From the IMG/VR virus record IMGVR_UViG_3300021255_000006: a DNA stretch of 20,000 nucleotides; one strand, 5' to 3'. Positions 1-10,616 of the stretch are shown here, one piece after another. The notes beneath the pieces are model-generated. The model saw only the letters and a program-made list of their open reading frames with translations, was not told the origin of the DNA and made no database searches. Both the position numbers and the translations under genes were made by a program. Positions within the stretch are counted from its first letter, which is position 1; each line of letters starts with the position of its first letter. The DNA comes from an uncultured virus (IMG/VR IMGVR_UViG_3300021255_000006). Lineage: Duplodnaviria > Heunggongvirae > Uroviricota > Caudoviricetes.

Positions 1-438
1 CTGAAGGACTTCCTCTGCTTCGCCCCTTGTGGTTATTACGATATCGTCAACAAGATAGCTAGAAGTACCAGCCTTTTTTCGAACAGGCTGCTGGGGCACG
101 GTTTGACCATTATAGTAGCTTCTATATGAAACTTGTCCGGCCGCAGTTCTAGGCCTTTGCTTTGTCCCACCGTCTTTGCCCCAGAGAGCCATGTCGACAA
201 CATTAGTCACTACATCCTGAGCGATTTTTCGAATCTCTGGATCAATGACCTCTTTTATGATATGATTCTTGATTGTTGCCGCATCTTCCTTTACTAAGGA
301 ATCAAGAATTTTAGCAAGTTTTCCCTTCTTCTTAGTTTTTACCGGAGATTTGACAACCTTATCAATCTTTTTTTCGGAAGATTCTTCAGCTTTAGTCTCC
401 ATTTTAGACTTCATCGAATTTGCTCTATAATCCTCCAC
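1..438 (-). CDS. Phage hypothetical protein, partial (runs off left edge); not in ORF track
   Basis: GTG start at 438 after RBS GAGGAGG; frame open to position 1: MEDYRANSMKSKMETKAEESSEKKIDKVVKSPVKTKKKGK...VSYRSYY...TRGEAEEVLQ. Confidence 0.85.
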   Translation of the reverse strand, partial: MEDYRANSMKSKMETKAEESSEKKIDKVVKSPVKTKKKGKLAKILDSLVKEDAATIKNHIIKEVIDPEIRKIAQDVVTNVVDMALWGKDGGTKQRPRTAAGQVSYRSYYNGQTVPQQPVRKKAGTSSYLVDDIVITTRGEAEEVLQ

Positions 439-940: not shown

Positions 941-1132
941 CTATTTAACTATTTGGATTTTTCCTGGAAGAGTTATGACCGATGATGCCAATCTGTTATT
1001 CCTCTTTTTCCACTGGTACGCAAGATTGTTTCTGGCTTTTTTCTCGGTTTTAGCCATCGTCTCGCCATACCATCGATTTTCTACGAGACGACCAAACTCC
1101 ATTATCGGTCCTTCGTAAATATAATGATTCAT
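941..1132 (-). CDS. Small basic hypothetical protein (63 aa, MNHYIYEGPIMEFG...)
   Basis: Start moved to ATG 1132 (GAGG upstream); the longer ORF-track start runs through the terminator hairpin. Confidence 0.75.
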   Translation of the reverse strand: MNHYIYEGPIMEFGRLVENRWYGETMAKTEKKARNNLAYQWKKRNNRLASSVITLPGKIQIVK

Positions 1133-1145
1133 AAGAAACCTCATG

Positions 1146-1181
1146 AAAAACGAAGAGCCTGAGCATTTGCCCAGACTCTTC
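1146..1181 (-). terminator. Intrinsic terminator T1 (end of cassette 1)
   Basis: GAAGAGUCUGGGCA-AA-UGCUCAGGCUCUUC-GUUUUU; both DNA mismatches are G.U pairs on the minus-strand RNA. Confidence 0.85.
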
Positions 1182-1214
1182 AACATCGATTCCATATTCA
1201 GTTGTTATAGGATA

Positions 1215-1445
1215 TTATCCCCTTTTAAAGTATTCTCCGGTTACGGGCACTTCGGCATAGGCCTTCTTTTTTCTTCCGAACACTTTTTTAACGCCCTTCA
1301 CGATCAGCCCAACACCAAGGAGTGCCAGTCCACCAATGACTGCCATATCTCGTGTTGTCAGCTGTTCTCCGGTCTTCTTCTGTTCGTCGACAGTTGTTTC
1401 CTCTGCTGTTGTTACCTCGAATCCGTTTTTCATTTCTTCAGGCAT
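1215..1445 (-). CDS. Small single-pass membrane protein (cassette 1 cargo)
   Basis: 76 aa, RBS AAAGGAG, acidic N-terminus, TM MAVIGGLALLGVGLIV, basic tail. Confidence 0.85.
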   Translation of the reverse strand: MPEEMKNGFEVTTAEETTVDEQKKTGEQLTTRDMAVIGGLALLGVGLIVKGVKKVFGRKKKAYAEVPVTGEYFKRG

Positions 1446-1483
1446 AGTAATCTCCTTTCTTTTTGTTACCTGATTTACGGTTT

Positions 1484-1508
1484 CATAATATGCACTGTAT
1501 ATAGCGCG
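1484..1508 (-). promoter_or_regulatory. 25-bp cassette motif, copy 1
   Basis: CGCGCTATATACAGTGCATATTATG. Confidence 0.75.
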
Positions 1509-1514
1509 TATTAA

Positions 1515-2303
1515 TCAAAGATAATTTCCCCAAGAATCTTTAGGATGATCAGGTCGCTTATTAAACCCAACAACTAAAACAGGAATGTTCTCATATTCGC
1601 CGCTTCCAAGCGCACATGAAAATTCAGGTTCGAGCTTTGTGTTCTGAGGCCAACCGAGTTCTTTTGCATATTTGCATTCTAGGCCGTCATAAACTCCAGC
1701 TTGGTAATAATATTCATTTAAGTATACGAAATCGCTATAGCCACATTGATGAGTAATTTCATTCATGACACGCCATATGTGCTCAGAATTACTCCAGAAA
1801 TAATGTCCGGAAAACTCATCTTTGCATAACTGATTGCCCTTGCCACCAACCATGACAAATCCTGGCGGAGGTGGGTCTTTCTTTACACTGTTCTCTGCCG
1901 CTTTGGCATGTACTTCAGCCTCTTTTTTTTCTCCAAGTACTTCCTTAGCGGCCGTCCTGTATTCCTTAAGAGCTTCCTCCGATAGCGAGTATGCGGTCGC
2001 AAAGGCCGCAGCTCTCCTCGCAGTAGCTTTCTGCCCGCCGATAATAAGACAGCAGGCTAAAACAAAAATGATCAGTGAAGGCAGATAACACTGCCACGTA
2101 GCTTTAACAGTTTCAACAACAGTGAGGTCTTCTCCTTTTTCCTCCTTCTTTTCCTCAATGTTTTTTACTGCTTCTGGTGTTTTTTGAACTGCCCGAACAC
2201 CGGCGACAAAAGCAGCCGCCAGTCCGAAGCCCACGGCAAGCCATGGTCCGTTTGCTTTGACAAATGCCTTTCCGGCCGTCAAAAGCGTTTTCACTTTCAT
2301 CAA
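1515..2303 (-). CDS. DUF6353-like phage membrane protein
   Basis: Two hydrophobic segments, KTPEA, TWQCYLP, RRAAAFATAYSLSEEALKEYR and C-terminal LCKDEFSGHYF...LNEYY...LGW patterns, recognised by eye as DUF6353-like. Confidence 0.75.
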   Translation of the reverse strand: MMKVKTLLTAGKAFVKANGPWLAVGFGLAAAFVAGVRAVQKTPEAVKNIEEKKEEKGEDLTVVETVKATWQCYLPSLIIFVLACCLIIGGQKATARRAAAFATAYSLSEEALKEYRTAAKEVLGEKKEAEVHAKAAENSVKKDPPPPGFVMVGGKGNQLCKDEFSGHYFWSNSEHIWRVMNEITHQCGYSDFVYLNEYYYQAGVYDGLECKYAKELGWPQNTKLEPEFSCALGSGEYENIPVLVVGFNKRPDHPKDSWGNYL

Positions 2304-2343
2304 TTTTCTCCTTTCTTAAATATGAAGTGAATAGAAACAAAAA

Positions 2344-2425
2344 GAGAAGGTACTGTAGGAATCGAACCTACGTCTCTGTCGTTAGACAGCGCTTTCCCTC
2401 TAAGCTATTGTTAAGTACCTTTCTC
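2344..2425 (-). ncRNA. tRNA-like RNA with 4-nt anticodon loop (cassette 2 cargo)
   Basis: Acceptor AGGUACU/AGUACCU, D arm GCUU-AGAGGGA-AAGC, anticodon-position stem CUGUC-UAAC-GACAG, variable AGAC, T arm GUAGG-UUCGAUU-CCUAC; no CCA; followed by U-tract. Confidence 0.85.
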
Positions 2426-2450
2426 CATAACACACCTTGTTTATTTCGCG
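2426..2450 (-). promoter_or_regulatory. 25-bp cassette motif, copy 2
   Basis: CGCGAAATAAACAAGGTGTGTTATG; contains the TAA stop of 2441..2665. Confidence 0.8.
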
Positions 2451-2665
2451 TGTTTCTTAAACAGCTTATCAATGTCGTCTTTAGCGAGCTTCTTCGCAAT
2501 GGTATTAACTTTTTCAGATGTCATAATGTCTATAAGTTTTCCCGGATTGTGCGGAGAAAGCGTCATATCTGTTGCCATAGCAATGTATCCGAACATAGTA
2601 ACCCAATATTTAGTTGTAATCTTTGCGGTTACAAACGCTACAAGTGCATATTTTACGAATTTCAT
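2441..2665 (-). CDS. Hypothetical protein (74 aa)
   Basis: ORF with RBS AAAGGAG; hydrophobic N-terminus. Confidence 0.75.
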   Translation of the reverse strand: MKFVKYALVAFVTAKITTKYWVTMFGYIAMATDMTLSPHNPGKLIDIMTSEKVNTIAKKLAKDDIDKLFKKHAK

Positions 2666-2680
2666 AAATACTCTCCTTTC

Positions 2681-2980
2681 TTAGTACAAAGTATCAAGAA
2701 TCCAATCAGCAGTATCGGCAGCAACAGAAAACATATAGCCTGCATTTAAAGAATTACAAGCCGCCTTAGTCATTCTTTCTTTGAAATCTTCAATAACTTT
2801 TCGAGGCGGTTCGTCTTTTTCCAAAACTTCTTTTACTATTTGATTAAACGCATGATTTCTATAGCACGCTTGATAAAAATATTTTGGATTCGAAGCCTCG
2901 TTCGGGTCAGACAAATCGCCAGCTAATAATCCAAGCCCAAACAATGCCCGATTTTTTTGTATTCGTAGCTTCCCGGTCAT
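2681..2980 (-). CDS. Hypothetical protein (99 aa, MTGKLRIQ...)
   Basis: Start moved to ATG 2980 with RBS AGGAG, downstream of terminator T3. Confidence 0.75.
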   Translation of the reverse strand: MTGKLRIQKNRALFGLGLLAGDLSDPNEASNPKYFYQACYRNHAFNQIVKEVLEKDEPPRKVIEDFKERMTKAACNSLNAGYMFSVAADTADWILDTLY

Positions 2981-3000
2981 ATGCCGAACTCTCCTAAAAT

Positions 3001-3043
3001 ATAAAAGCAAGAGAGCTCAAAAACATCTTATGAACTCTCTTGC
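3001..3043 (-). terminator. Intrinsic terminator T3
   Basis: 13-bp stem GCAAGAGAGUUCA/UGAGCUCUCUUGC (one G.U) plus UUUUAU. Confidence 0.85.
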
Positions 3044-3052
3044 CGTTATTAA

Positions 3053-3166
3053 TTACTCTTCTTCTTTCTCATCAATGTTGCTGGAAATAACTTTACCAAT
3101 TTCGCCGATAGCCTGGATAATTGCTCCTACGACAATCATGGTCGTCCATCTACTCCATCTACTCAT
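3053..3166 (-). CDS. 37-aa peptide (cassette 3 cargo); not in ORF track
   Basis: RBS AAAGGAGGT; MSRWSRWTTMIVVGAIIQAIGEIGKVISSNIDEKEEE*; fills the space between motif and terminator. Confidence 0.8.
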   Translation of the reverse strand: MSRWSRWTTMIVVGAIIQAIGEIGKVISSNIDEKEEE

Positions 3167-3191
3167 GATGATACCTCCTTTCATAGTATTT

Positions 3192-3216
3192 CATTAGAGA
3201 CCCTGTTTATTCTGCG
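3192..3216 (-). promoter_or_regulatory. 25-bp cassette motif, copy 3
   Basis: CGCAGAATAAACAGGGTCTCTAATG; contains the TAA stop of 3207..3653. Confidence 0.8.
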
Positions 3217-3653
3217 TCTTCAAAGTTTTTGTATGGCTCATAAGGCATATCTATGGTGATTACTTCTTCGCCAGAAGACGTATGACCAAGTTTATGATTG
3301 AAGTCGATCCAATACACTCCGTCTTCCGGATACCACATCTTATTTTCATCTTCCGGTCTTCTATCAAGACCTAAGAAATCAGACCACATATGAGCATCGA
3401 CATCCGCACCCATTGTGTAATTGCGGTTCAAATGGTATTCAGCCTGTAAGACCTGCGATAAAGTAGCTTTGAAATGGCGTTTCGAAAAAGAATCATAGAA
3501 AAGTCTTATCGGGTCTTCTATTTTCGAATGAACTGACTGGGTTACATAATCTGTGAAATCGGCCGTCCAAATATCTTGAGGAAAGCACTGGTCTTTGATG
3601 ATTACGGGTTCGAGTTCATCGTTCATTGACGACTGAATGATCGATTCCAACAA
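3207..3653 (-). CDS. DUF6353-like C-terminal domain protein, lacking the TM region
   Basis: RBS AAAGGAGGT, TTG start; LFYDSFSKRHF...AEYHLNRN...WIDFNH...MPYEP parallels the C-terminal half of 1515..2303. Confidence 0.7.
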   Translation of the reverse strand: MLESIIQSSMNDELEPVIIKDQCFPQDIWTADFTDYVTQSVHSKIEDPIRLFYDSFSKRHFKATLSQVLQAEYHLNRNYTMGADVDAHMWSDFLGLDRRPEDENKMWYPEDGVYWIDFNHKLGHTSSGEEVITIDMPYEPYKNFEDAE

Positions 3654-3671
3654 TATCGCACCTCCTTTGAC

Positions 3672-3711
3672 AAAAAAGAAAAGCCCTCGATTCTATAAAG
3701 AACCAAGGGCT
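3672..3711 (-). terminator. Intrinsic terminator T4
   Basis: AGCCCUUGGUUCU-UUAU-AGAAUCGAGGGCU-UUUCUUUUUU; two G.U pairs. Confidence 0.85.
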
Positions 3712-3749
3712 CATTCACATAATCAAATATATCTTAATCTATTTTCAAC

Positions 3750-4088
3750 TTACTTCTTATCGTCAGTTACTTTCTTTTTCACTTCAGTTGCTTTGCCATT
3801 GTTCAGAAGCCCAGCCATCTCGAGCTTTGCCTTGATCTCACCGTACCTCTCACCGGTAGCCATGAATCCGATCTCAAGAACAGGGTGCTCGGTCTTCCCA
3901 TCAGCATCAAGAATTGTCGTGTCCTTAAGACAATTCAGAGGCTGATGTACTTTGTCGAGCAGCATGTCCAGAGTCGCATCTCTGTCATCCAGTTCGATGT
4001 AGATGGTTCTCTGCAGCTTAGTCTCTTCTTCCTGCCCTGCTTTGAACTCGTTGACTAAATCAAAAATTGTGTAAAATCTACGTTTCAT
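3750..4088 (-). CDS. Hypothetical protein (cassette 4 cargo, 112 aa, soluble)
   Basis: ORF with RBS GGAGGT. Confidence 0.85.
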   Translation of the reverse strand: MKRRFYTIFDLVNEFKAGQEEETKLQRTIYIELDDRDATLDMLLDKVHQPLNCLKDTTILDADGKTEHPVLEIGFMATGERYGEIKAKLEMAGLLNNGKATEVKKKVTDDKK

Positions 4089-4141
4089 TTCAATACCTCC
4101 ATAAATATAAAAATTGTTTATAAGTTTATAGTTCTCTTATG

Positions 4142-4166
4142 CATAAAGGGGATTGTTTATGTTGCG
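4142..4166 (-). promoter_or_regulatory. 25-bp cassette motif, copy 4
   Basis: CGCAACATAAACAATCCCCTTTATG; 2 nt after the stop of 4169..4525. Confidence 0.75.
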
Positions 4167-4168
4167 AA

Positions 4169-4525
4169 CTAAACTGGACAGTGGTCAAAGCATGTTTCCC
4201 ATGGCTGCCTTTTTATTGGTTTAAGTTTTAATGCCCACATCATCTGCCTTATAGTAACAGTTGGGTAAATGCCGTCTTTGGATATTCCGGCTTTCGCTTT
4301 AAAATATCCTGGAAATTTCGGGCTTCCGTACAGCATATTTCTATACGGATTTTCAATAGCAGACCACCATGTATGCTTTGTTATGGGATCGTAGTATTGT
4401 TGTATTACTGCTAATCCTAAGTTTCCATTTTTGTACAACGTACATTTGTGGTAGATTATATGATTACAATGATATGTCTCTCCAAACATAGGAACGGAAT
4501 CAAAGACCTCGCAGTGATAACGCAT
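4169..4525 (-). CDS. Hypothetical protein (118 aa, Cys/His/aromatic-rich)
   Basis: ORF with RBS GGAGGT just after terminator T5. Confidence 0.85.
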   Translation of the reverse strand: MRYHCEVFDSVPMFGETYHCNHIIYHKCTLYKNGNLGLAVIQQYYDPITKHTWWSAIENPYRNMLYGSPKFPGYFKAKAGISKDGIYPTVTIRQMMWALKLKPIKRQPWETCFDHCPV

Positions 4526-4540
4526 ATGACCTCCAAAACC

Positions 4541-4579
4541 AAAAAGGCCTTGTTAGAATTCTAAAACCCTAACAAGACC
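4541..4579 (-). terminator. Intrinsic terminator T5
   Basis: 15-bp stem GGUCUUGUUAGGGUU/AAUUCUAACAAGGCC (three G.U) plus UUUUU. Confidence 0.85.
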
Positions 4580-4595
4580 ATTTTTGTTGAATCAA

Positions 4596-5120
4596 TTAAC
4601 CCTTTCTAAACGGGTTGGGGAGTTGTCTTATTACAAGATCTTTAAATTTTCCAGATACTACCTTGTGCTCTTCGTAATCCAAACCGTACTTAAGTGCGGC
4701 GAATCCGCCAACAGTCCTTACTACTCCGCTAAGAGCCTCGACAGCAAGTCTCGCCATAAGCTGCTGATCAGAATGAATCCGATTAAGCTCTTCCAACTTT
4801 TCCTGAGCATCACGTTGATGAATCGCGTCAATTCGTCTCTGTTCTTCAAGTTCTTTCTGCAGTTTGATTTTCTCTGCATCCAGCTCTTTCTGAATCTTAA
4901 CTTTTTCGACTTCAAGCTCATGCTTCTTCACGTCAAGATCGTGTTTCTTTGTTGCAAGATCATTGTCAAACTTCATCTTTTCCAGCTTTGAAGACTCGCC
5001 GACAAGTCTCAATGCAGTTCCAGTACGAACCGCCTGCTTTCCCGCATCATTTTCTGCCAGTGCTTGTTTCAAAGCGTTCAAGGCATTTTTGTCAACTTGC
5101 TTAATAATCTCGTCTGTCAT
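4596..5120 (-). CDS. Coiled-coil protein (cassette 5 cargo, 174 aa)
   Basis: RBS AAGGAG; internal repeats KKHDLDV/KKHELEV and EKVKIQKELDA/EKIKLQKELEE. Confidence 0.85.
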   Translation of the reverse strand: MTDEIIKQVDKNALNALKQALAENDAGKQAVRTGTALRLVGESSKLEKMKFDNDLATKKHDLDVKKHELEVEKVKIQKELDAEKIKLQKELEEQRRIDAIHQRDAQEKLEELNRIHSDQQLMARLAVEALSGVVRTVGGFAALKYGLDYEEHKVVSGKFKDLVIRQLPNPFRKG

Positions 5121-5157
5121 ATCAATCTCCTTCCTTAATAGAACAAAATTATTGTTT

Positions 5158-5182
5158 CATATTAGCCCTTGTTTGTTTCGCT
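5158..5182 (-). promoter_or_regulatory. 25-bp cassette motif, copy 5
   Basis: AGCGAAACAAACAAGGGCTAATATG; contains the TAA stop of 5162..5428. Confidence 0.75.
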
Positions 5183-5428
5183 ATGCTGACGTACCTCAAC
5201 GACCATATAAACTTTATCTCCGTCCTTTTTCGACAAAATATCTTGCGTTAATTCGAGAGTTGTTGCAATAAATTCCCGTCCATCAACATGCAACACAAGA
5301 ACACCAATGTACTTTTCTTCGTGATCGGACTTATTAAAAGCTTTATGGTTTTTATATAATGTTATCCCGCTCCAAGCTCCAATAGAGGCTATCATAACAA
5401 AAAGCAATAAAAGTATTAACACATCCAT
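5162..5428 (-). CDS. Small N-terminally anchored membrane protein (88 aa)
   Basis: RBS AAAGGAG; VLILLLLFVMIASIGAWSGI. Confidence 0.85.
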   Translation of the reverse strand: MDVLILLLLFVMIASIGAWSGITLYKNHKAFNKSDHEEKYIGVLVLHVDGREFIATTLELTQDILSKKDGDKVYMVVEVRQHSETNKG

Positions 5429-5445
5429 GAGTAACTCCTTTCTAT

Positions 5446-5542
5446 AAAAAATAAAAAAAAATAAAAGGCTCGATGGGAGGACAGAACTCCATCGAGAAGG
5501 TAGCGTCTCTCAGCTACAACATTCGTCTCACTTACTTCCTTT
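5446..5542 (-). ncRNA. Candidate small structured RNA or minigene with terminator T6 (cassette 6 cargo)
   Basis: No ORF longer than 5 aa between motif 6 and U-tract; hairpins GUAGC-UGAGAGAC-GCUAC and CUCGAUGG-n12-CCAUCGAG-CC-UUUUAUUUUUUUU. Confidence 0.55.
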
Positions 5543-5567
5543 CATACTATGACTTGTTTATTTCGCG
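5543..5567 (-). promoter_or_regulatory. 25-bp cassette motif, copy 6
   Basis: CGCGAAATAAACAAGTCATAGTATG; first 15 nt identical to copy 2; abuts the U-tract of T7. Confidence 0.8.
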
Positions 5568-5568
5568 C

Positions 5569-5602
5569 AAAACGAAAAGGCTCTGTAAATATCTACAGAG
5601 CC
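5569..5602 (-). terminator. Intrinsic terminator T7
   Basis: GGCUCUGUAGAUAUUUACAGAGCC-UUUUCGUUUU. Confidence 0.85.
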
Positions 5603-5609
5603 AATCCGT

Positions 5610-5891
5610 TTACTCTTCGTTAAGTCGGACACAGTCATTCATAACATCCTGAATATCACCATAATAACAAAAACCATTATCTCTTACATAAACCTCTGGT
5701 AATCCGTCAAACTGCGATACACGCAGATACGGGACATACAAGTTTTTATACTCAACGGGGTTCTGCTGTTTCTTCTCATACAGTCTCCGGTGGTATACAT
5801 ACACCTGATCAAGTCCACGATCTGTGTTTTCGCTGTAGTGGATTCCTTCGGATTTAAGCCATTCAATAAAATCTTTTCTATTATCTATCAT
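5610..5891 (-). CDS. Hypothetical protein (cassette 7 cargo, 93 aa, soluble, Tyr-rich)
   Basis: ORF with RBS AAGGAGGTG. Confidence 0.85.
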   Translation of the reverse strand: MIDNRKDFIEWLKSEGIHYSENTDRGLDQVYVYHRRLYEKKQQNPVEYKNLYVPYLRVSQFDGLPEVYVRDNGFCYYGDIQDVMNDCVRLNEE

Positions 5892-5919
5892 GTTACACCT
5901 CCTTCATTCATGATGTGTC

Positions 5920-5944
5920 CATAATAGAATTTGTGCATCTAGCG
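5920..5944 (-). promoter_or_regulatory. 25-bp cassette motif, copy 7
   Basis: CGCTAGATGCACAAATTCTATTATG; contains the TAG stop of 5939..6361. Confidence 0.7.
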
Positions 5945-6361
5945 CACCCCACTGAGCACAAAATAAAACTTCCTCCGCCGGTCATAAAACATGTCTCGCT
6001 CACACGGAATACCATGCACGTTCTTCAACGTAACAAAAGTCAAGTTCTCGGTAACCGCTTTGAGAATATAACTGTACAGCTCTGAGTCGGCCGCCATAGC
6101 AGACTGTTCAACCATGCGCATGTAGTCGCTTAGCAGTTTCCTCTGTATGGCAATCTCTGCTGTTCGATCGGCTATTTTAGACGCGTTTACTCGCAAAATA
6201 TCAGTACTTCGAGAAGCCATTCCTACCGATCCCTCAAGCTCTGCCAGCTTCCGCTTCCACTCGGGATACTGCAAAGCAAAATATCTCAGCTCCAGATATC
6301 GGTATTTCGGCAGCCACCACTTACTAGATTTCGATAACTCCTTAGACAAAAAATCACCCAT
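5939..6361 (-). CDS. Probable RinA/ArpU-like phage transcriptional regulator
   Basis: Start at ATG 6361 (RBS AAGGAGG); YLELRYFALQYPEWK, DRTAEIAI and C-terminal HTH-like LTFVTLK..IPCERDMFYDRRRKFY. Confidence 0.6.
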   Translation of the reverse strand: MGDFLSKELSKSSKWWLPKYRYLELRYFALQYPEWKRKLAELEGSVGMASRSTDILRVNASKIADRTAEIAIQRKLLSDYMRMVEQSAMAADSELYSYILKAVTENLTFVTLKNVHGIPCERDMFYDRRRKFYFVLSGVR

Positions 6362-6449
6362 GATCAGGTCCTCCTTTTCGCTGGAGTTTAAACCTAGACA
6401 TGGGTGCATGAATATGGTATTTAGTTTGGGGCGAACTACTCTACTTTAC

Positions 6450-6617
6450 TACACAATTTTTACACAAATATAAGTCTGAAATTGACTCAAATCACGACCT
6501 GAGACCCGCATAAAACCTGACTCAGGGTCTTCATCATATTACGATACCTAATTTCATTTCTGTCTATTCTCCTTTAAATATAAGTCTCTTGGATGACATT
6601 ACACAGATTTTACACAA
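6450..6617. other. Putative attP region
   Basis: Tandem TACACA-n5-TACACAA pairs at 6450-6467 and 6600-6617, direct repeat AAATATAAGTCT at 6466-6477 and 6576-6587, imperfect inverted repeat 6496-6530; directly 3' of the integrase. Confidence 0.6.
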
Positions 6618-7759
6618 GATTCGAACAAATCAACTCCCGCACGCAGGCTCTCATCTGTGACATGTACGTATCTGTCCATGGTAGTCTTGATACTGGCATG
6701 ACCAAGGAGCTTCTGTAGGGTCTTTGGTGGCATTCCTCGCTCGATAGCTCTGGTAGCGTATGTATGTCTCAGTGCGTGCATACAGAACCGCTTAATACCA
6801 GCCTCGTCGCATAACTTATACAGATGCGTGTCGTACGAGCTATTCTTTGCAGGCATCCCAGTTCGCCAATTCACAAATATAAGTTCCCGCATGTTAAACG
6901 ACTTAAGCACTCCGCTACGTCGATCCAGATAGCTCAGAGTTTGATCCAGTTTTGGCGACTCTTTACGCTCTGAATCTCTGACCTCCAGCAAAATATCATA
7001 CGCTTTGGCCGTGAGTGGTATAGTCCTGTAACTTGATTGAGTTTTTGTCGGACCGGCTCTCCAGACCTTTGAAGAATGCCGATACTCCAATGTCTTAGTG
7101 ACTGAGAGCGTCCGGTTTTCCCAGTCTACACAGTCCCAGGTAAGTCCAATAAGTTCGCCTGTGCGTAGTCCGGTCTCTAATATAAGCGCGTATTGTCGAT
7201 AGTTATGAGACCTCTTAGCGGCTTCGAGGAACTTATTCTGTTCAGTCACAGTAAGAAAGTGAATCTCGTCAGGCGCTTTCTTTGGCTTGTTAATCTTAAT
7301 TCCTGTCAAAGGGTGTTTATCTATAAGCTCGTTATCCACAGCGGCTCTAAGCATTGTGCCCATAGTAATATAAGTCTGAATAATCGTTCCTGTGGCGTAT
7401 TGCGCTTCCATCTGATTAAGTACCATTTTGCAGTGCATCGGCTTAAGCTCTGTCAGATGAATATCACCGATGTAAGGACCTACGTTGTAGTGGTAACGCT
7501 CTGAGTAATTCCGTCTGGTGTTTGGCGCCAGGTCACATATCAGATTGGTACTCCAATACTCATACCATTGATCAAGCGTCATAGACTTTTTTGCTTTAGG
7601 TTTGCTCTTAGCCTCTTTCAACCACGCCTTGGCTTCTTTAACGGTTTTAAAGTAAGCGCCAAAACTCTGACCGTGCTGAGTGCATCTTGCAAAATATAAA
7701 CCGTCTTTCCTCTGACAAATACCTGTTCCAAGTTCCTTTCCTTTTAAATCCTTTCCCAC
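6599..7759 (-). CDS. int: Tyrosine recombinase / phage integrase
   Basis: GTG 7759 with RBS AAGGAGGT ([18 protein letters not shown]); catalytic TGLRTGE, HALRH, LGH, DRY; SAM-like TRRNY region. Confidence 0.95.
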
Positions 7760-7790: not shown

Positions 7791-7799
7791 AGTATAGCA
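7791..7799 (-). promoter_or_regulatory. Extended -10 promoter for integrase
   Basis: TG-C-TATACT about 32 nt upstream of the GTG start, just after a terminator. Confidence 0.5.
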
Positions 7800-7808
7800 C
7801 GGCAGGCG

Positions 7809-7853
7809 AAAAAATAAAAGGGACAGTAAACCTTGCGGCAAACCATCCCTTTT
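7809..7853 (-). terminator. Terminator ending the late/tail operon (possibly bidirectional)
   Basis: AAAA-GGGAUGGU-UU-GCC-GCAA-GGU-UU-ACUGUCCC-UUUUAUUUUUU. Confidence 0.8.
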
Positions 7854-7943: not shown

Positions 7944-10616
7944 TTAATCACCGAAGTATACATCGTAGGCACGCTCTGCTGTCGCAATTTCAATCCCTGA
8001 TTCCATCGCATAGTCAATCAAGTCTTCGAGCATGGGCAAATAAACTTCTGACCCCATAGTAGGGTTTTCCCCGTTAATATCAATAACGGGCTTCCCTTCT
8101 GTATTGGTCATTGGTATGGGATTGCCGTCAGTGTCTTTTTTCACACTGCCGTCAGGATTTAATTCTACCCTCTGCTTATAAATACTATTAGATGTATGAA
8201 ACATCCATATCATCCATCCTTTTTTATCAGCGCACTCGTCAACGAATCCTTTCAAGTCGTCATAATTCCAGTCAGTTCGGCCTTCGCTTGCGGCATAATC
8301 GCATCTGTAGCGTGCAAGTGCGAATTTGTCCGTATAAGGATAATTGAGCGTTTCTCCGCCTATGCGGATACCAGCCCTAAATACTTTTGCGGCGCATTCC
8401 TGATAAAATTTGTATGTACCCGTAGAAGATGTGTAAACCAAAATGTCACTAGCGTGATATCCGTGTCGTTTCAGAATATTGAGTCCTCTTAAATATTTAT
8501 GCGTCACTTCAAGCGCATTAAAATTGTGCGGATCAATATCATCGGGATGGTCATAAGTATGACAAAGGATTTCAGCACCGGAGTCATTACATTCATCGAT
8601 TTCTTCGTAAGTCATAAAGCCAACTTTACCTACGTTTACTGGCGTGACAGCGGAAGAAATCGGTATGTTTTTACGAAGGATCATCGGCACAACGTCTGTT
8701 AAAAAATGCTTATCCCCGTCATCGTCTATAATTGTCAGCATTGCTACATTTCCTTTTACGACGTTCGAATAAAAATCTACGCACCCCAAAATGCCAATAC
8801 CTGATGTATTAGAAAACTCCAGATAATCACCTGACGTACTTACTATAATCTCTGCAGGCATTACCACGGAGATGTCATAGATTTCTTCAGCGTCGAGCTC
8901 AAAAAGAACTATGGCGGGATTCTGAGTCATATACTCGTTTATTTTTGCAGTTGTATCGATTCCTGCAACTGGTACCCGCACAGAAAAACCGTATGTTTTA
9001 TCCGTATAAAGTGCAATAACGGGCTTATCTGTAACCTCTGCATTGTATATAGCCGCATAAGATACTGGCGTAAGAACGTCAGATAGAACATCGCCTAATG
9101 CCCTGATCGTTGGCTGGGGCTTTTCGCCGATATTATAATAAATCCATGCAGAAGTTGTATCGGTCGGCTTGAAATTAGATGTACGAATTGGCTGTGTTCC
9201 ATTAAGTACAACTCTTCCGACATTCTTGTGATACCTCCATCCGTGTTTGATTGCCCCACCCTCAGACCATTCGTCGTAGCTGATATAATTACATCTCTTT
9301 TGTGTAGCACTGCCGTAATATTGCAACTGTTTAACAATATCAGGAATATTGTGTATATCACCGCCACACTGCACCGCTGTGGGTATAGTTTCAATGAACG
9401 CAGAATAAATCGTAGGATTATTTGCAGCATACACTTCGATAGCATTTAACACCTCTGTGTCGTTAATGGTTGGCTCATTTCCAGCTCCGAACATTTCCGT
9501 AAGGTCAACACATATCGGTCTAATGACTGTATCAATCTCACCATAAAACGCTTCGAGTATCTTGATCACTAAGTAATCATAGCTTCCAGTCTGCGCTGGC
9601 GCGGTAGCGATTTGTCGATTGCCTTTGTATGTTACGCCTACATATTTATTGTAGCGCATTCCATACAGACACACATTTTCATCCCCAGTGCTTAAAAAAT
9701 ATTTATGTCCCGCAACAAAGAAATAAATGCCAGAAGAATAACCTGTGTTTGTCTGTATATTCCTATCAGACTGTGATTTTGTACCATTTATCGCCCATGT
9801 ACCATCGCTGTTATTTGTAAATGTCATGCTACCAACGGTTTTACTTGATCCGGTGTTTTTGTTAACCTGGGACCATTTCCAAACAGCGCTTCCTACTTTA
9901 GAAACACGGCAATATTTTGCCACATCCTTTTCGATTGTTTTTTGATAAAAATAACCTTCTTTCGTTAAAATGCTTTCTTGCGATATGGCAACGCCTTTTT
10001 TATATTGTAAATCTTCTTGTGCATCCAAATTGGTTACAGAAACCTTGAGCCCACTTTCGCATACTTTATGATTCAAGTAAGGCGGATTAGCATCTGTATA
10101 TACGCTATTAAAACAGAAGTATTTTTCGCCCGGCAAAATCTCTATTGAATAAGTATCAAACACCTGAGACTCTTCCGCTGTTGCCGTGCGCATAACAGTA
10201 TAATTAGCATCACAAGTCGCCCACGTTCTTGACGTGGCAGAGCCTTTTCCGCCAACATCAACTATTCCATATTCACTGACGGGGAACAGTGCTGTCCTAT
10301 AGATATCACTTGCGTTTACAGTTGTACGAATATAAGAACCATTACTGACTCTATATCCATTTACAAGTTCTTCATTTCGTTCGAAATATCCGTTGACATC
10401 ACTTGATAATACTTTTAAATCTTCCTTTAAATCAGTAATCTCATCCCCCACCACTTTAGCGTCTGCCGCCTGTCCCTCTTGTGTGAGAGTGGGATCAAGC
10501 TGTATGCCAACCCGATCGGCTCGTATACGCTTGGTCCCGCCCTCGCCATTGTCAAGGAGCAAATAATCTCCGTCGTTGTATCCGGTTTTCTCACTGTAAG
10601 ATATAACTCTTCCCAT
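7944..10616 (-). CDS. Large tail-associated/receptor-binding protein with C-terminal polysaccharide deacetylase (NodB/CE4-like) domain
   Basis: 890 aa; LDPTLTQEGQAADAKVVG fibre-type linker; LTIIDDDG, EILCHTYDH, WMIWMFH motifs. Confidence 0.75.
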   Translation of the reverse strand: MGRVISYSEKTGYNDGDYLLLDNGEGGTKRIRADRVGIQLDPTLTQEGQAADAKVVGDEITDLKEDLKVLSSDVNGYFERNEELVNGYRVSNGSYIRTTVNASDIYRTALFPVSEYGIVDVGGKGSATSRTWATCDANYTVMRTATAEESQVFDTYSIEILPGEKYFCFNSVYTDANPPYLNHKVCESGLKVSVTNLDAQEDLQYKKGVAISQESILTKEGYFYQKTIEKDVAKYCRVSKVGSAVWKWSQVNKNTGSSKTVGSMTFTNNSDGTWAINGTKSQSDRNIQTNTGYSSGIYFFVAGHKYFLSTGDENVCLYGMRYNKYVGVTYKGNRQIATAPAQTGSYDYLVIKILEAFYGEIDTVIRPICVDLTEMFGAGNEPTINDTEVLNAIEVYAANNPTIYSAFIETIPTAVQCGGDIHNIPDIVKQLQYYGSATQKRCNYISYDEWSEGGAIKHGWRYHKNVGRVVLNGTQPIRTSNFKPTDTTSAWIYYNIGEKPQPTIRALGDVLSDVLTPVSYAAIYNAEVTDKPVIALYTDKTYGFSVRVPVAGIDTTAKINEYMTQNPAIVLFELDAEEIYDISVVMPAEIIVSTSGDYLEFSNTSGIGILGCVDFYSNVVKGNVAMLTIIDDDGDKHFLTDVVPMILRKNIPISSAVTPVNVGKVGFMTYEEIDECNDSGAEILCHTYDHPDDIDPHNFNALEVTHKYLRGLNILKRHGYHASDILVYTSSTGTYKFYQECAAKVFRAGIRIGGETLNYPYTDKFALARYRCDYAASEGRTDWNYDDLKGFVDECADKKGWMIWMFHTSNSIYKQRVELNPDGSVKKDTDGNPIPMTNTEGKPVIDINGENPTMGSEVYLPMLEDLIDYAMESGIEIATAERAYDVYFGD

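Follow-up and report, generated by a model that had tools for sequence, protein, structure and literature searches.

Organization of the Cassette Array

The window, a stretch of 20,000 nt from the genome of an uncultured Caudoviricetes phage, contains seven units, each of which is composed of one motif copy, exactly one cargo, and one hairpin with a U-tract, as the original prediction had stated. The cargoes comprise five small ORFs, one small RNA (sRNA), and one anticodon-less tRNA-like RNA. The region opens the early/replication module, with the tail genes and an integrase preceding it, and in relatives it lies upstream of the genes for a primase-polymerase and a single-strand annealing protein, which agrees with its earlier placement in an early operon. 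The features of the window listed below are on the minus strand.

The array is preceded by a gene for a 140-aa protein of phrog_11237 (5939..6361; PHROG E-value 2e-36), a candidate regulator, whose stop codon overlaps motif copy 1 (5914..5946, 30.6 bits). The first cargo is a 93-aa ORF (5610..5891) with no match in Pfam or PHROG, followed by terminator T1 (5579..5602). Motif copy 2 (5537..5569, 37.3 bits) precedes a small non-coding RNA (cargo 2, about 5446..5543) that belongs to no Rfam family and has terminator T2 (hairpin at about 5469-5496) as its 3' end; directly after T2 lies an 88-aa gene (5162..5428) without a motif of its own. Motif copy 3 (5152..5184, 33.6 bits), a 174-aa ORF (cargo 3, 4596..5120), and T3 (4546..4579) are followed by a conserved gene of phrog_17256 (4169..4525), which shows 56-67% identity in six of seven close loci. 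Motif copy 4 (4136..4168, 30.5 bits) and T4 (3681..3712) enclose a 112-aa ORF (cargo 4, 3750..4088); cargoes 3 and 4 have no Pfam or PHROG family and were not found in relatives.

Downstream of T4, a 148-aa DUF6353 C-terminal-type protein is encoded (3207..3653; Pfam PF19880, E-value 5e-14, profile positions 151-251). Motif copy 5 (3186..3218, 32.2 bits), a 37-aa hydrophobic peptide (cargo 5, 3053..3166), and T5 (3006..3044) come next, and behind them are a 99-aa gene (phrog_10740, 2681..2980) and a 74-aa gene (2441..2665). Motif copy 6 (2420..2452, 37.3 bits) is followed by the tRNA-like RNA (cargo 6, 2340..2426), whose extended acceptor stem runs into a U-tract and constitutes T6, and by the gene for a conserved 262-aa DUF6353 membrane protein (1515..2303; Pfam E-value 8e-42). 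Motif copy 7 (1478..1510, 34.1 bits), a 76-aa ORF with a hydrophobic segment (cargo 7, 1215..1445), and T7 (1151..1182) precede two conserved genes with PHROG matches that are kept in relatives, phrog_15567 (941..1132) and phrog_4079 (1..438, continuing beyond the window). Genes located upstream extend into the motif.

Genes alternating with the units had been regarded as a backbone. This label fits the conserved genes but not 5162-5428, 2681-2980, and 2441-2665, for which no homologue was found in the seven closest loci.

Sequence and Distribution of the Motif

The motif is lineage-wide, strand-specific, and promoter-like, with the consensus TTCGCGAAAWTWACA-N5-TWTTATG-RRAA. Its seven copies in the window occur on the minus strand only, within 1478-5946, and score 30.5-37.3 bits with a matrix built from these same, originally proposed sites (12.5-25.6 when each is left out in turn); with this matrix, no other site in the 20 kb exceeds 9.0 (minus strand) or 7.3 (plus strand). 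The most conserved part is CGC...ACA, the conservation in the logo being inflated by selection of the sites with the matrix, and TTCGCGAA in the consensus is an 8-nt palindrome.

Among loci left out of matrix building, matches were found exclusively on the coding strand: 408 versus 0 on the opposite strand in 49 metagenome loci (690 kb), and 438 versus 0 in 72 prophage loci (1.25 Mb), related loci being non-independent samples. The spacing is identical in FP_oengus (a Faecalibacterium phage), Elsa (an Arthrobacter phage), and Secretariat (a Gordonia phage). Of the 15 copies in FP_oengus, every one lies before gp55 and none in 31-58 kb, and Elsa and Secretariat have eight and nine full-pattern copies, respectively, on the plus strand only. 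Lactococcus phage P092 contains about 11 copies of TTTTACATACCCTATAATG, which corresponds to the 3' two-thirds of the motif, and TATAAT occurs without mismatch as the 3' box of Elsa, Secretariat, and P092. No match was detected in the late (left) arms of these three phages, where the matrix maxima were 6.1, -0.1, and 2.6, respectively. In four complete relatives, the motif spans the early/middle genes through the operon of a putative RdRP-like RNA polymerase, and the late genes lack it.

A search of five host genomes with a degenerate pattern gave 34 matches, about 27 of which cluster in the prophage, and the reversed pattern used as a control gave one; beyond the prophage, host chromosomes have almost no copies of the motif. 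The lineage consists of FP_oengus-like prophages of Clostridia, 1706-like phages of Lactococcus, and the Arthrobacter and Gordonia phages that have the same genome plan as these. The window derives from a gut phage of Clostridia, and related phages of very different bacteria carry the same putative promoter.

The predicted order of elements within a unit extends to the whole lineage. Across 99 loci, 693 of 806 motifs have a terminator between them and the next motif (median unit, 295 nt), 137 of these 693 units (about a fifth) contain no ORF, and each phage carries 7-20 cassettes in dense arrays. Motif density is 2.3 per kb directly past the phrog_11237 gene and zero in the tail genes, and the first motif is located at most about 300 nt from the phrog_11237 stop codon in most loci.

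The motif contains no -35 hexamer 16-18 nt from TWTTAT, and only 48% of the copies in the Clostridia branch carry an A at position -11; thus, it is not a standard sigma-A promoter. Judging from its sequence and distribution, it appears to be a lineage-specific promoter-like signal and not of a host promoter type.

Terminators and Read-Through

As previously suggested, the stem mismatches of T1, T3, T4, T5, and T7 are G.U pairs: all five are uninterrupted stems with 1, 3, 3, 2, and 2 such pairs, respectively (15 pairs altogether in T3 and 14 in T5). The sense strand folds more stably than the antisense strand by 6-9.5 kcal/mol in T3 (-19.0 vs. -10.7), T4, T5, and T7, whereas the two are equal in T1. 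For unit terminators across loci, the values are -14.8 (sense) versus -9.1 kcal/mol (antisense), with 1276 of 7084 pairs being G.U, all of which are inflated by the use of sites selected by matrix or sense fold. The terminators therefore seem to act as RNA. A generic terminator scan of the whole window revealed no enrichment (11 found vs. 13.6 +/- 2.9 in shuffled sequences); its four longest stems (10-15 pairs) are T7, T4, T3, and T1.

Genes following T2-T5 and T7 start about 15-25 nt after the hairpin, and the gene following T6 starts ~45 nt after it. Among 587 distinct unit terminators, 228 have a motif at most 60 nt downstream, and 256 precede an ORF start (median gap, 31.5 nt) without an intervening motif. 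This latter arrangement implies that read-through-dependent genes are a built-in feature, in agreement with the suggestion that backbone genes need read-through.

Variation of the Cargoes

None of the five cargo proteins recurs in the seven close loci, in which the core genes do recur, and the cargo after the first motif is different in each close relative. Cargo 1 is missing in two of them (L072 and L078), where the sRNA directly follows the first motif; the sRNA is kept in L072, L077, L078, and L002, with stem differences that preserve pairing. Breakpoints of similarity blocks coincide with the motif in 57 of 191 block starts and 69 of 219 ends, about five times the 5.9% expected. The alignment of relatives thus gave what had been anticipated for swappable modules, namely variable cargo, recurring core genes, and breakpoints at the motif. 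Based on this variability and these breakpoints, the units may be regarded as moron- or PeSL-like cassettes with a common special promoter.

Cargo 6 (2340-2426) matches the Rfam tRNA family with 33.2 bits (gathering score 29; model positions 8-63), and no tRNA was called in it by ARAGORN. It folds into a cloverleaf in which a 4-nt loop replaces the anticodon loop, and CCA is not encoded. In the tRNA-like RNAs driven by the motif, motif positions 28-31 form covarying pairs with the 3' strand (for example, G-C in eight and A-U in five), suggesting that these positions are part of the RNA. If so, transcription would start 1-2 nt past the hexamer, which is too close for sigma-70. Both the tRNA-like and the sRNA cargoes start right at the 3' end of the motif.

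Proposed Model and Alternatives

We propose, with a probability of about 0.8, that the motif is a special-class promoter of one phage lineage, that its units are terminated and exchangeable, and that partial read-through feeds the conserved genes. Transcription would begin at or next to the conserved G directly after TWTTAT, copy one small cargo (an ORF or a structured RNA), and mostly end at the intrinsic terminator of the cassette. The read-through fraction would then be the sole visible mRNA source for the conserved gene located 15-45 nt past the hairpin. Comparative evidence indicates that cassettes are gained, lost, and swapped by recombination at the motif or terminator, because a promoter of about 30 nt is common to them and often abuts a terminator, and that the conserved genes stay put.

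Regarding the polymerase that reads the motif, we give close to an even chance to the phage's own enzyme, the single-chain RdRP/YonO-like RNA polymerase of the lineage (phrog_4291), whose N- and C-terminal helix-turn-helix domains would read TTCGCG and TTTACA and which would start at the G after TATAAT; the enzyme would have to arrive in the virion or be produced at a basal level. This protein has a sigma-70 region-4-like helix-turn-helix (E-value 1.7e-10), an N-terminal helix-turn-helix, and a weak RdRP match, and a preprint reports a DxDGD motif in it; its polymerase activity is putative. Both motif and polymerase are present in FP_oengus, G008, G010, P092, Secretariat, Elsa, and five of five prophage genomes, and five genomes with motif-less prophages bearing phrog_11237 also lack the polymerase, although co-occurrence cannot separate it from other core genes of the lineage. 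Conservation of motif sequence and spacing across hosts of different phyla, the lack of its use by host genomes, and a predicted start right after TWTTAT, which misfits sigma-70 geometry, also favor this enzyme. On the other hand, its own operon sits behind a motif (in FP_oengus, L234, L235, Elsa, G001-G003, and G005, the nuclease-polymerase operon has a copy upstream) and would depend on it, a chicken-and-egg situation unless the enzyme is injected or present at a basal level. In addition, late genes lack the motif, whereas the SPbeta homologue YonO is described as transcribing late genes; the 2017 YonO paper gives the promoter of YonO as not yet defined.

It is also possible, at below even odds, that host RNA polymerase reads the motif, either by itself or together with a phage factor: sigma-A would recognize TATAAT/TATTAT and the G-rich discriminator as a -10-only promoter, and the upstream TTCGCGAA...ACA box would bind a phage activator, or a repressor in temperate members, for which phrog_11237 is the candidate in the window. 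The perfect TATAAT of Elsa, Secretariat, and P092 would suit host sigma-A, an 8-nt palindrome is expected for a dimeric DNA-binding protein, and lytic members need a host-read promoter at time zero, for which the motif is the sole repeated candidate where the early region begins. Furthermore, the phrog_11237 gene has its end inside motif copy 1 of the window and inside the first motif of six close relatives (L072, L073, L076, L078, L079, and L080) and elsewhere mostly lies close to it, and its homologues in other prophages are found just upstream of terS, before another promoter-like box. However, phrog_11237 is absent from motif-bearing G010 (100% complete) and was not found in P092 or the actinophages, a properly spaced -35 is lacking, the covariation described above places the start too close for sigma-70, and an identical upstream box across phyla is difficult to reconcile with host factors.

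A stronger form of the originally proposed two-tier system, in which phrog_11237 would be a Q-like antiterminator loaded at the motif, with short terminated RNAs made in its absence and, in its presence, a polymerase that passes the terminators and expresses the conserved genes, is unlikely. Its AF2 model is all-helical (pLDDT 81), and the best match in the whole structure bank is Q21 in the Q-engaged complex (6jnx_P; Z 5.6, rmsd 7.8 A), but this match is tied with unrelated helical proteins and lies within helical-protein noise; a fold search with the model gave no clear match, and Foldseek and sequence searches gave nothing. In four of nine "late-type" loci, a promoter-like box, a short transcript, and a terminator lie between the homologue and terS, a layout like the lambda Q-PR'-tR' arrangement, and the 256 terminators followed by promoterless genes would also fit. 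However, motif arrays exist without phrog_11237, and factor-free partial read-through explains the anatomy equally well. The original interpretation is partly supported: the early region, unit grammar, read-through anatomy, and swappability stand, and antitermination and a host-takeover or anti-defence role of the cargoes are putative.

We consider it very improbable that the motif is an RNA-level signal, such as a processing site, in one long early transcript. Its overlap with upstream gene ends and the predicted presence of positions 28-31 in the RNA would be compatible with this, but the motif is often only a few nt past a strong terminator and would be reached by little transcript, the best-conserved stretch (CGC...ACA) is upstream of the RNA structures, and the tRNA-like and sRNA cargoes begin at its 3' end.

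Comparison with Known Systems

The special-promoter cassettes proposed here resemble the morons of lambdoid phages, which Juhala and Hendrix are said to have described in 2000 as promoter-gene-terminator units between two operon genes. In both cases an autonomous unit is inserted between genes that are adjacent in relatives, as with cassette 1, which is absent in L072 and L078. Morons have assorted sigma-70 promoters, whereas here one putative lineage-specific promoter is used in dense arrays and 137 of 693 units lack an ORF.

PeSL cassettes of T4-type phages are described as composites of a terminator and an early promoter in hyperplastic regions with many small ORFans, with indels and replacements arising via recombination between the motifs (PMC2839356, PMC4122927). 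Similarly, 228 of 587 terminators adjoin a motif here and breakpoints are enriched at motifs. PeSL promoters are strong and sigma-70-like, whereas our motif has no properly spaced -35; in addition, the hosts here are Gram-positive, the phages are siphoviruses (some temperate), and the cassettes are interspersed with conserved genes at conserved positions.

As the original prediction had allowed, a version of the motif is already in print for a relative. The accessible part of the genome announcement of Gordonia phage Vardy (cluster DJ) reports a 50-bp intergenic motif, present in five copies with TATAAT, in a mid-genome region of small membrane-protein genes and terminators, and interprets it as a sigma-70 -10 sequence with a possible regulatory effect on expression (PMC9671010). 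That part makes no mention of cross-phylum conservation, unit grammar, exchange, a link to the polymerase operon, or RNA cargoes (PMC9671010). A homologous motif was found in Secretariat, also of cluster DJ, and the two are very likely the same element, Vardy being compared by its description and Secretariat by sequence.

Phage polymerases are known to use promoters of their own, such as those of T7/SP6 and the late promoters of phiKZ/AR9 with a TATG-like start. The motif shares with them a contiguous box of ~27 nt, an AT-rich end before a +1 G and purine-rich start, and phage specificity, being absent from the host genome; the candidate enzyme differs in being RdRP/YonO-like with helix-turn-helix domains, and its link to the motif is putative.

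Known tRNA mimics include mascRNA and the tRNA-like module of bacterial Y RNAs. Like these, cargo 6 and related RNAs retain the acceptor, D, and T arms and have an abnormal anticodon region. In contrast to mascRNA and Y RNA, cargo 6 appears to be a primary transcript, in which the promoter defines the 5' end and the acceptor-stem terminator the 3' end.

Organization of the Seven Units in the Window

All genes of the window are located on the minus strand. The tape-measure and tail genes (19898 down to 7944, minus strand) are followed by a tyrosine integrase gene (7846–6599, minus strand) and then by the gene for a 140-amino-acid protein, phrog_11237 (6361–5939, minus strand), which lies directly upstream of the cassette array. 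The original prediction described this array as seven units of one motif, one cargo, and one hairpin with a U-tract each, and this arrangement was seen at all seven sites. The sites scored 30.5–37.3 bits against a matrix made from those same seven sites, compared with at most 9.0 in the rest of the 20 kb, and their leave-one-out scores were 12.5–25.6. A conserved, strand-specific promoter-like motif precedes every cargo in the window. Five cargos are ORFs (93, 174, 112, 37, and 76 amino acids), none of which could be assigned to a Pfam or PHROG family, and the other two are RNAs. No GenBank phage DNA showed similarity to the window at blastn sensitivity.

Several other features of the region were observed. 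The 240-nt gap between the integrase and phrog_11237 genes (6362–6598) is approximately 77–85% identical in three related loci (L072, L076, and L077) and may contain attP and the first early promoter. An 890-amino-acid protein encoded after the tail genes (7944–10616, minus strand) has a polysaccharide deacetylase domain at residues 626–692 and may be a tail-associated cell-wall enzyme. Two DUF6353 paralogues are encoded at 3207–3653 and 1515–2303 (minus strand), the shorter of which matches only the C-terminal 100 profile positions; phage FP_oengus and locus L040 contain three DUF6353 genes each.

Sequence and Distribution of the Motif

To gather relatives, we searched with the DUF6353 and phrog_11237 proteins and, as a third route, with a 15-mer taken from the motif. 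Scanning IMG/VR for exact 15-mer matches returned 67 single matches; most resembled chance matches, but two (L040 and L044) turned out to be true relatives. The window and seven loci of IMG/VR then served to build a refined matrix. In loci outside matrix building, matches on the coding and opposite strands numbered 408 and 0 in 49 metagenome loci (690 kb), and 438 and 0 in 72 prophage loci of named Clostridia genomes (1.25 Mb). The tail genes have a motif density of 0; immediately behind the stop codon of phrog_11237 the density reaches 2.3 per kb, and it then falls off over about 7 kb. The logo of 494 distinct, matrix-selected sites is TTCGCGAAAWTWACA-nnyyC-TWTTAT-G-RRAA, with near-invariant positions C3, G4, C5, C14, T23, A25, T26, and G27.

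A degenerate form of the motif matched five host genomes 34 times, and about 27 of these matches were clustered in a prophage on its coding strand, compared with a single match for a reversed-pattern control in the same genomes. It is thus indicated that host genes make no use of the motif. The motif lacks a −35 element at 16–18 nt, and its TTTACA and TTCGCG elements lie 5 and 14 nt from the TWTTAT box, unlike a sigma-70-like promoter. When compared with a sigma-A −10 element, T26 is 99% conserved, but A is present at position 22 in only 48% of the Clostridia-branch copies. An ATG-led mini-ORF inside the motif was also considered and dropped, as TTATG accounts for the conserved ATG in every lineage and no conserved peptide was seen.

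The same motif was detected in phages whose hosts belong to different phyla. Gordonia phage Secretariat has nine copies (TTCGCA-nnn-ATTACA-yGCCy-TATAATG-AGACCCC), Arthrobacter phage Elsa has eight copies of the full pattern (e.g., TTCGCGTAAAATACAAGGGCTATAATGGAGAAG), and Lactococcus phage P092 has about 11 copies of GTTTTACATACCCTATAATG-ARA, which lack the CGC box. The spacing of the CGC, ACA, TATAAT box, and G elements in these phages is identical to that of the window, and TATAAT is perfect in the actinophages and P092. All copies are on the coding strand just after the tail genes, and no match was found in the late arms of the three genomes. Similarly, FP_oengus contains 15 copies, all on the coding strand and upstream of gp55, and none in 27 kb of its late genes. 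A copy located 0.1–1.4 kb upstream of an endonuclease-exonuclease-polymerase operon is retained in distant relatives, including FP_oengus (L233, record position 27682), L234 (163), L235 (407), Elsa (L238, record position 54112), and the genomes G001–G003 and G005.

Terminators and Composition of the Units

A predicted hairpin and U-tract with sense-strand bias ends all seven units of the window. G·U pairs are the sole irregularities in the stems, in agreement with the original prediction, and folding suggested that the sense strand is 6–9.5 kcal/mol more stable than the antisense strand for the terminators of units 3, 4, 5, and 7 (T3, T4, T5, and T7). A generic terminator scan of the whole window was not above chance (11 found vs. 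13.6 expected); the four longest stems were in the array.

Across 99 loci, a predicted terminator-like hairpin occurs before the next motif for 693 of 806 motifs; measured from the motif, the terminators end after a median of 295 nt. Exactly one ORF of at least 25 amino acids is present in 500 of these 693 units (median 74 amino acids), two or more in 56, and none in 137. The unit hairpins have folding energies of −14.8 (sense) and −9.1 kcal/mol (antisense) with 18% G·U pairs, figures which are biased because the hairpins were picked by sense-strand folding. A motif follows within 60 nt after 228 of 587 distinct unit terminators, and another 256 lead into an ORF start without a motif (median 31.5 nt). 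The "backbone" genes alternating with the cassettes had been thought to have little room for their own promoter, and these 256 terminators indicate that promoterless backbone genes are a general feature of the lineage.

Many cassette terminators in L002 and L072 share a CTGTAG..GATATTTACAG theme in stem and loop (e.g., L002:6372–6407, 7403–7433, 7791–7825, and 19520–19566), which is also seen in terminator T1 of the window (5579–5602), and GAGCTTACGAGAAATCGTAGGCTC is common to FP_oengus terminators. Judging from these sequences, the terminators appear to form a repeat family of their own.

Variation and Exchange of Cargos

None of the five cargo proteins was found in the seven closest loci (70–91% identity in phrog_11237). 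By comparison, core genes were detected there more often: phrog_17256 in six of seven, DUF6353 and phrog_4079 in four each, and phrog_15567 in two. The proposed division into variable cargo and constant backbone thus stands for the cargos and core genes, but not for the 88-, 99-, and 74-amino-acid backbone genes, which are absent from the same loci.

The phrog_11237 stop codon (…GVR*, GGGGTGCGCTAA) overlaps the first motif in the window and six relatives. Behind this motif the content differs by locus: the 93-amino-acid ORF in the window, a small RNA in L072 and L078, a lipoprotein-like ORF in L073 and L076, and other small ORFs in L079 and L080. L072 and L078 lack cassette 1, and their phrog_11237 gene is directly adjoined by the next unit. 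In addition, L072 has two more cassettes than L002, bounded by the terminator/motif junction. The expected breakpoints at the motif were borne out. When the similarity blocks of all related loci were considered, 57 of 191 block starts and 69 of 219 block ends, which are not independent events, fell within −12 to +33 of a motif, compared with the 5.9% that sequence coverage predicts. A single-strand annealing protein, which relatives encode, would favor exchange at short homologies.

The 498 distinct cargo proteins form 231 clusters, 174 of which are singletons, and 45% of the proteins have a hydrophobic segment. Together with 137 noncoding units, they provide a catalogue of accessory cargo. 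Because the cargo boundaries are precisely marked, the arrays are suitable for superinfection-exclusion, host-takeover, and counter-defense screens as well as for the study of tRNA-like RNAs.

RNA Cargos

Cargo 6 (2340–2426, minus strand) matches the Rfam tRNA model with 33.2 bits (gathering score 29), and no tRNA was found in it by ARAGORN. The minimum-energy structure shows the acceptor, D, anticodon, and T arms of a cloverleaf; instead of a 7-nt anticodon loop with a readable anticodon, it has a loop of only 4 nt (UAAC). We found 17 tRNA-like RNAs that appear to be driven by the motif. RNAs of this kind are located directly behind a motif at, for example, L002:9617–9694, L078:5152–5233, and FP_oengus (L152):2935–3009, and P092 has two (L236, near record positions 23599 and 23987), which ARAGORN does not call. 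In general, ARAGORN gave either no call or tRNA-??? with a 2-nt anticodon for those of the relatives. The tRNA-like RNAs retain intact acceptor, D, and T arms (GGTTCGAWTCC) and have, in place of the anticodon loop, a loop of 4–6 nt (GCAA, UUCG, or UAAC) or a large insert. Their extended acceptor stem runs into the U-tract, and CCA is not encoded. In the window, L002, L072, L073, L078, and L079, the tRNA-like RNA is located upstream of a DUF6353 gene.

A consensus cloverleaf of 13 sequences contains 21 pairs, 16 of which show compensatory changes, including one pair that is G-C in eight sequences and A-U in five. The terminal stem starts at motif position 28, which is 2 nt past the hexamer, and shows covariation with the 3′ strand, which suggests that transcription starts directly after TWTTAT. 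The covariation at positions 28–31 argues against TWTTAT being an ordinary sigma-70 −10 element with a start about 7 nt downstream.

Cargo 2 (5446–5543, minus strand) is a structured RNA approximately 85 nt long that contains a conserved 5′ part, AAGGAAGUAAGUGAG, and a CUACCUUCC segment, and has no Rfam family. Members were found in only five loci, namely the window, L072:10442–10538, L077:6163–6250, L078:488–576, and L002:5066–5166, usually as the first or second unit behind the phrog_11237 gene. Sequence differences in two hairpins preserve pairing.

Phage Lineage and Possible Readers of the Motif

Among GenBank phages, phrog_11237 matched only FP_oengus and two uncultured gut phages. The plan of the window recurs in FP_oengus, which has an integrase, gp02, gp03 (phrog_11237), small genes, and three DUF6353 genes and continues with a 1337-amino-acid DNA polymerase and a single-strand annealing protein. 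Its gp55 (phrog_4291) is annotated as RNA-dependent RNA polymerase (RdRP). In a homologue from an IMG/VR relative, one helix-turn-helix is present at the N terminus and another, resembling sigma-70 region 4, at the C terminus, and the match to RdRP is weak. These domains agree with the available text of a preprint, in which phrog_4291-type proteins are putative YonO/RdRP-like polymerases and the signature of a supercluster comprising actinophage clusters AM, AU, AW, DJ, CC, EL, and BI, Lactococcus 1706-like phages, and FP_oengus (Koert 2021). The polymerase protein was detected in 250 phage records by tblastn. According to the text available, FP_oengus occurs in up to 40% of the gut viromes analyzed (Cornuault 2018). 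Several Clostridia-type prophage contigs were observed in bins labeled Bacteroidales, Kiritimatiellae, Phocaeicola, Parabacteroides, or Muribaculum (L155, L163, L175, L176, L194, L229, and L230), probably through mis-binning of phage contigs.

The motif recurs with the same sequence and spacing across host phyla and is unused by host genomes, which makes it a strong candidate for the site that a phage-encoded transcription protein recognizes; this protein may be the uncharacterized RdRP-like polymerase. We assign a probability of roughly 45% to the motif being read by the phage's own polymerase (phrog_4291). The DNA-binding domains of this protein and the apparent start position directly after TWTTAT point in the same direction. 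Motif and polymerase also co-occur in all complete relatives examined, a relationship that is confounded with lineage, and the window itself stops short of the polymerase gene. On the other hand, host RNA polymerase, alone or with a phage factor, is a credible if tentative reader. The perfect TATAAT in three lineages is consistent with it, lytic members require an early promoter read by the host, and the phage polymerase operon is itself behind a motif. Moreover, the late genes lack the motif, whereas YonO, the studied homologue, is described as transcribing a late operon.

A more specific form of the polymerase reading appears possible but more doubtful than either of these: TTCGCG-N6-ACA-N5-TATAATG (27 nt) would be the long-sought promoter of the helix-turn-helix RdRP/YonO-like phage polymerase, an enzyme present from the start of infection, and would fire exchangeable mini-gene arrays including tRNA mimics. 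The enzyme would have to be injected or made at a basal level, and the anticodon-less tRNA mimics would be primary transcripts whose acceptor stem doubles as terminator. If so, they could be decoys or scaffolds against host tRNA-directed functions. The motif provides a concrete and testable candidate promoter for early/middle genes of a widespread phage lineage with culturable members in Lactococcus, Arthrobacter, and Gordonia. As the recognition site of a phage-encoded transcription protein, it would allow the question of this protein to be addressed directly in vitro.

Relationship to Known Systems

A moron is a promoter-gene-terminator insert. Like morons, the units have their own predicted factor-independent terminator downstream (7/7 in the window and 693/806 lineage-wide), and cassette 1 separates genes that adjoin one another in L072 and L078, the relatives without this cassette. 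PeSLs of T4-type phages are described as composite terminator/promoter motifs that mediate shuffling (PMC2839356, PMC4122927). The units resemble them in that a stem-loop terminator is followed by a motif (e.g., T1 and motif 2 in the window; 228/587 terminators) and that indels or replacements between relatives are bounded by motifs. However, PeSLs contain a sigma-70-like promoter (−35/−10 at 16–18 nt), and such a −35 is absent from the motif here.

The suspicion that repeats might already have been reported in relatives proved right: in the announcement of cluster DJ phage Vardy, a 50-bp motif containing TATAAT is described as present in five copies, along with terminators and genes for small membrane proteins (PMC9671010). 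In the main texts of Cornuault 2018, Kot 2014, and Koert 2021 and in literature searches on DUF6353, DUF722, and the motif sequence, we found nothing on conservation of the full box across phyla, the composition rules of the units, restriction of the motif to an early/middle regulon including the polymerase operon, breakpoints at the motif, or RNA cargos. Literature searches returned no motif sequence strings, no work on DUF6353, and nothing relevant on DUF722. Kot 2014 contains no promoter motif; the available text of Cornuault 2018 does not mention terminator, tRNA, or motif, and that of Koert 2021 does not mention promoter or terminator.

The phrog_11237 Protein

The phrog_11237 protein had no match in Pfam, NCBIfam, PDB profile search, or Foldseek. 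The best whole-bank structural match of its model was the Q21 antiterminator (6jnx_P, Z 5.6, rmsd 7.8 Å), tied with unrelated helical proteins, and at the level of the predicted structure this match is within noise for helical proteins. DUF722 emerged as a possible lead from ESM Atlas features (0.94, 192 shared features). A role as general motif reader was rejected: G010 (a complete genome), G006, and P092 carry motifs without phrog_11237, so the protein is not a general requirement. It remains a candidate regulator in this branch. The start codon of its gene and the Shine-Dalgarno sequence lie within a stable hairpin at 6357–6406 (minus strand, −20.6 kcal/mol), which is conserved in L072 (−25.3) and L078 (−24.2) and may provide translational control of this candidate regulator.

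Nine phrog_11237-bearing loci lack the motif and represent a different type of phage, with the gene just upstream of the terS, terL, and portal genes. No polymerase was found in five searched genomes of this group, and a simple k-mer search of the nine loci revealed no alternative repeated motif. In L196 (9962–10548), L188, L212, L225, L183, L204, L211, and L167, a conserved box similar to GGACAAGTCAATATGGTATAAT (extended −10) comes after the phrog_11237 homologue. L183, L188, and L204 have a common hairpin right after this box, in which changes preserve pairing. In four of the nine loci, the box is followed by a predicted short transcript and a terminator, a layout similar to that of lambda Q/PR′/tR′.
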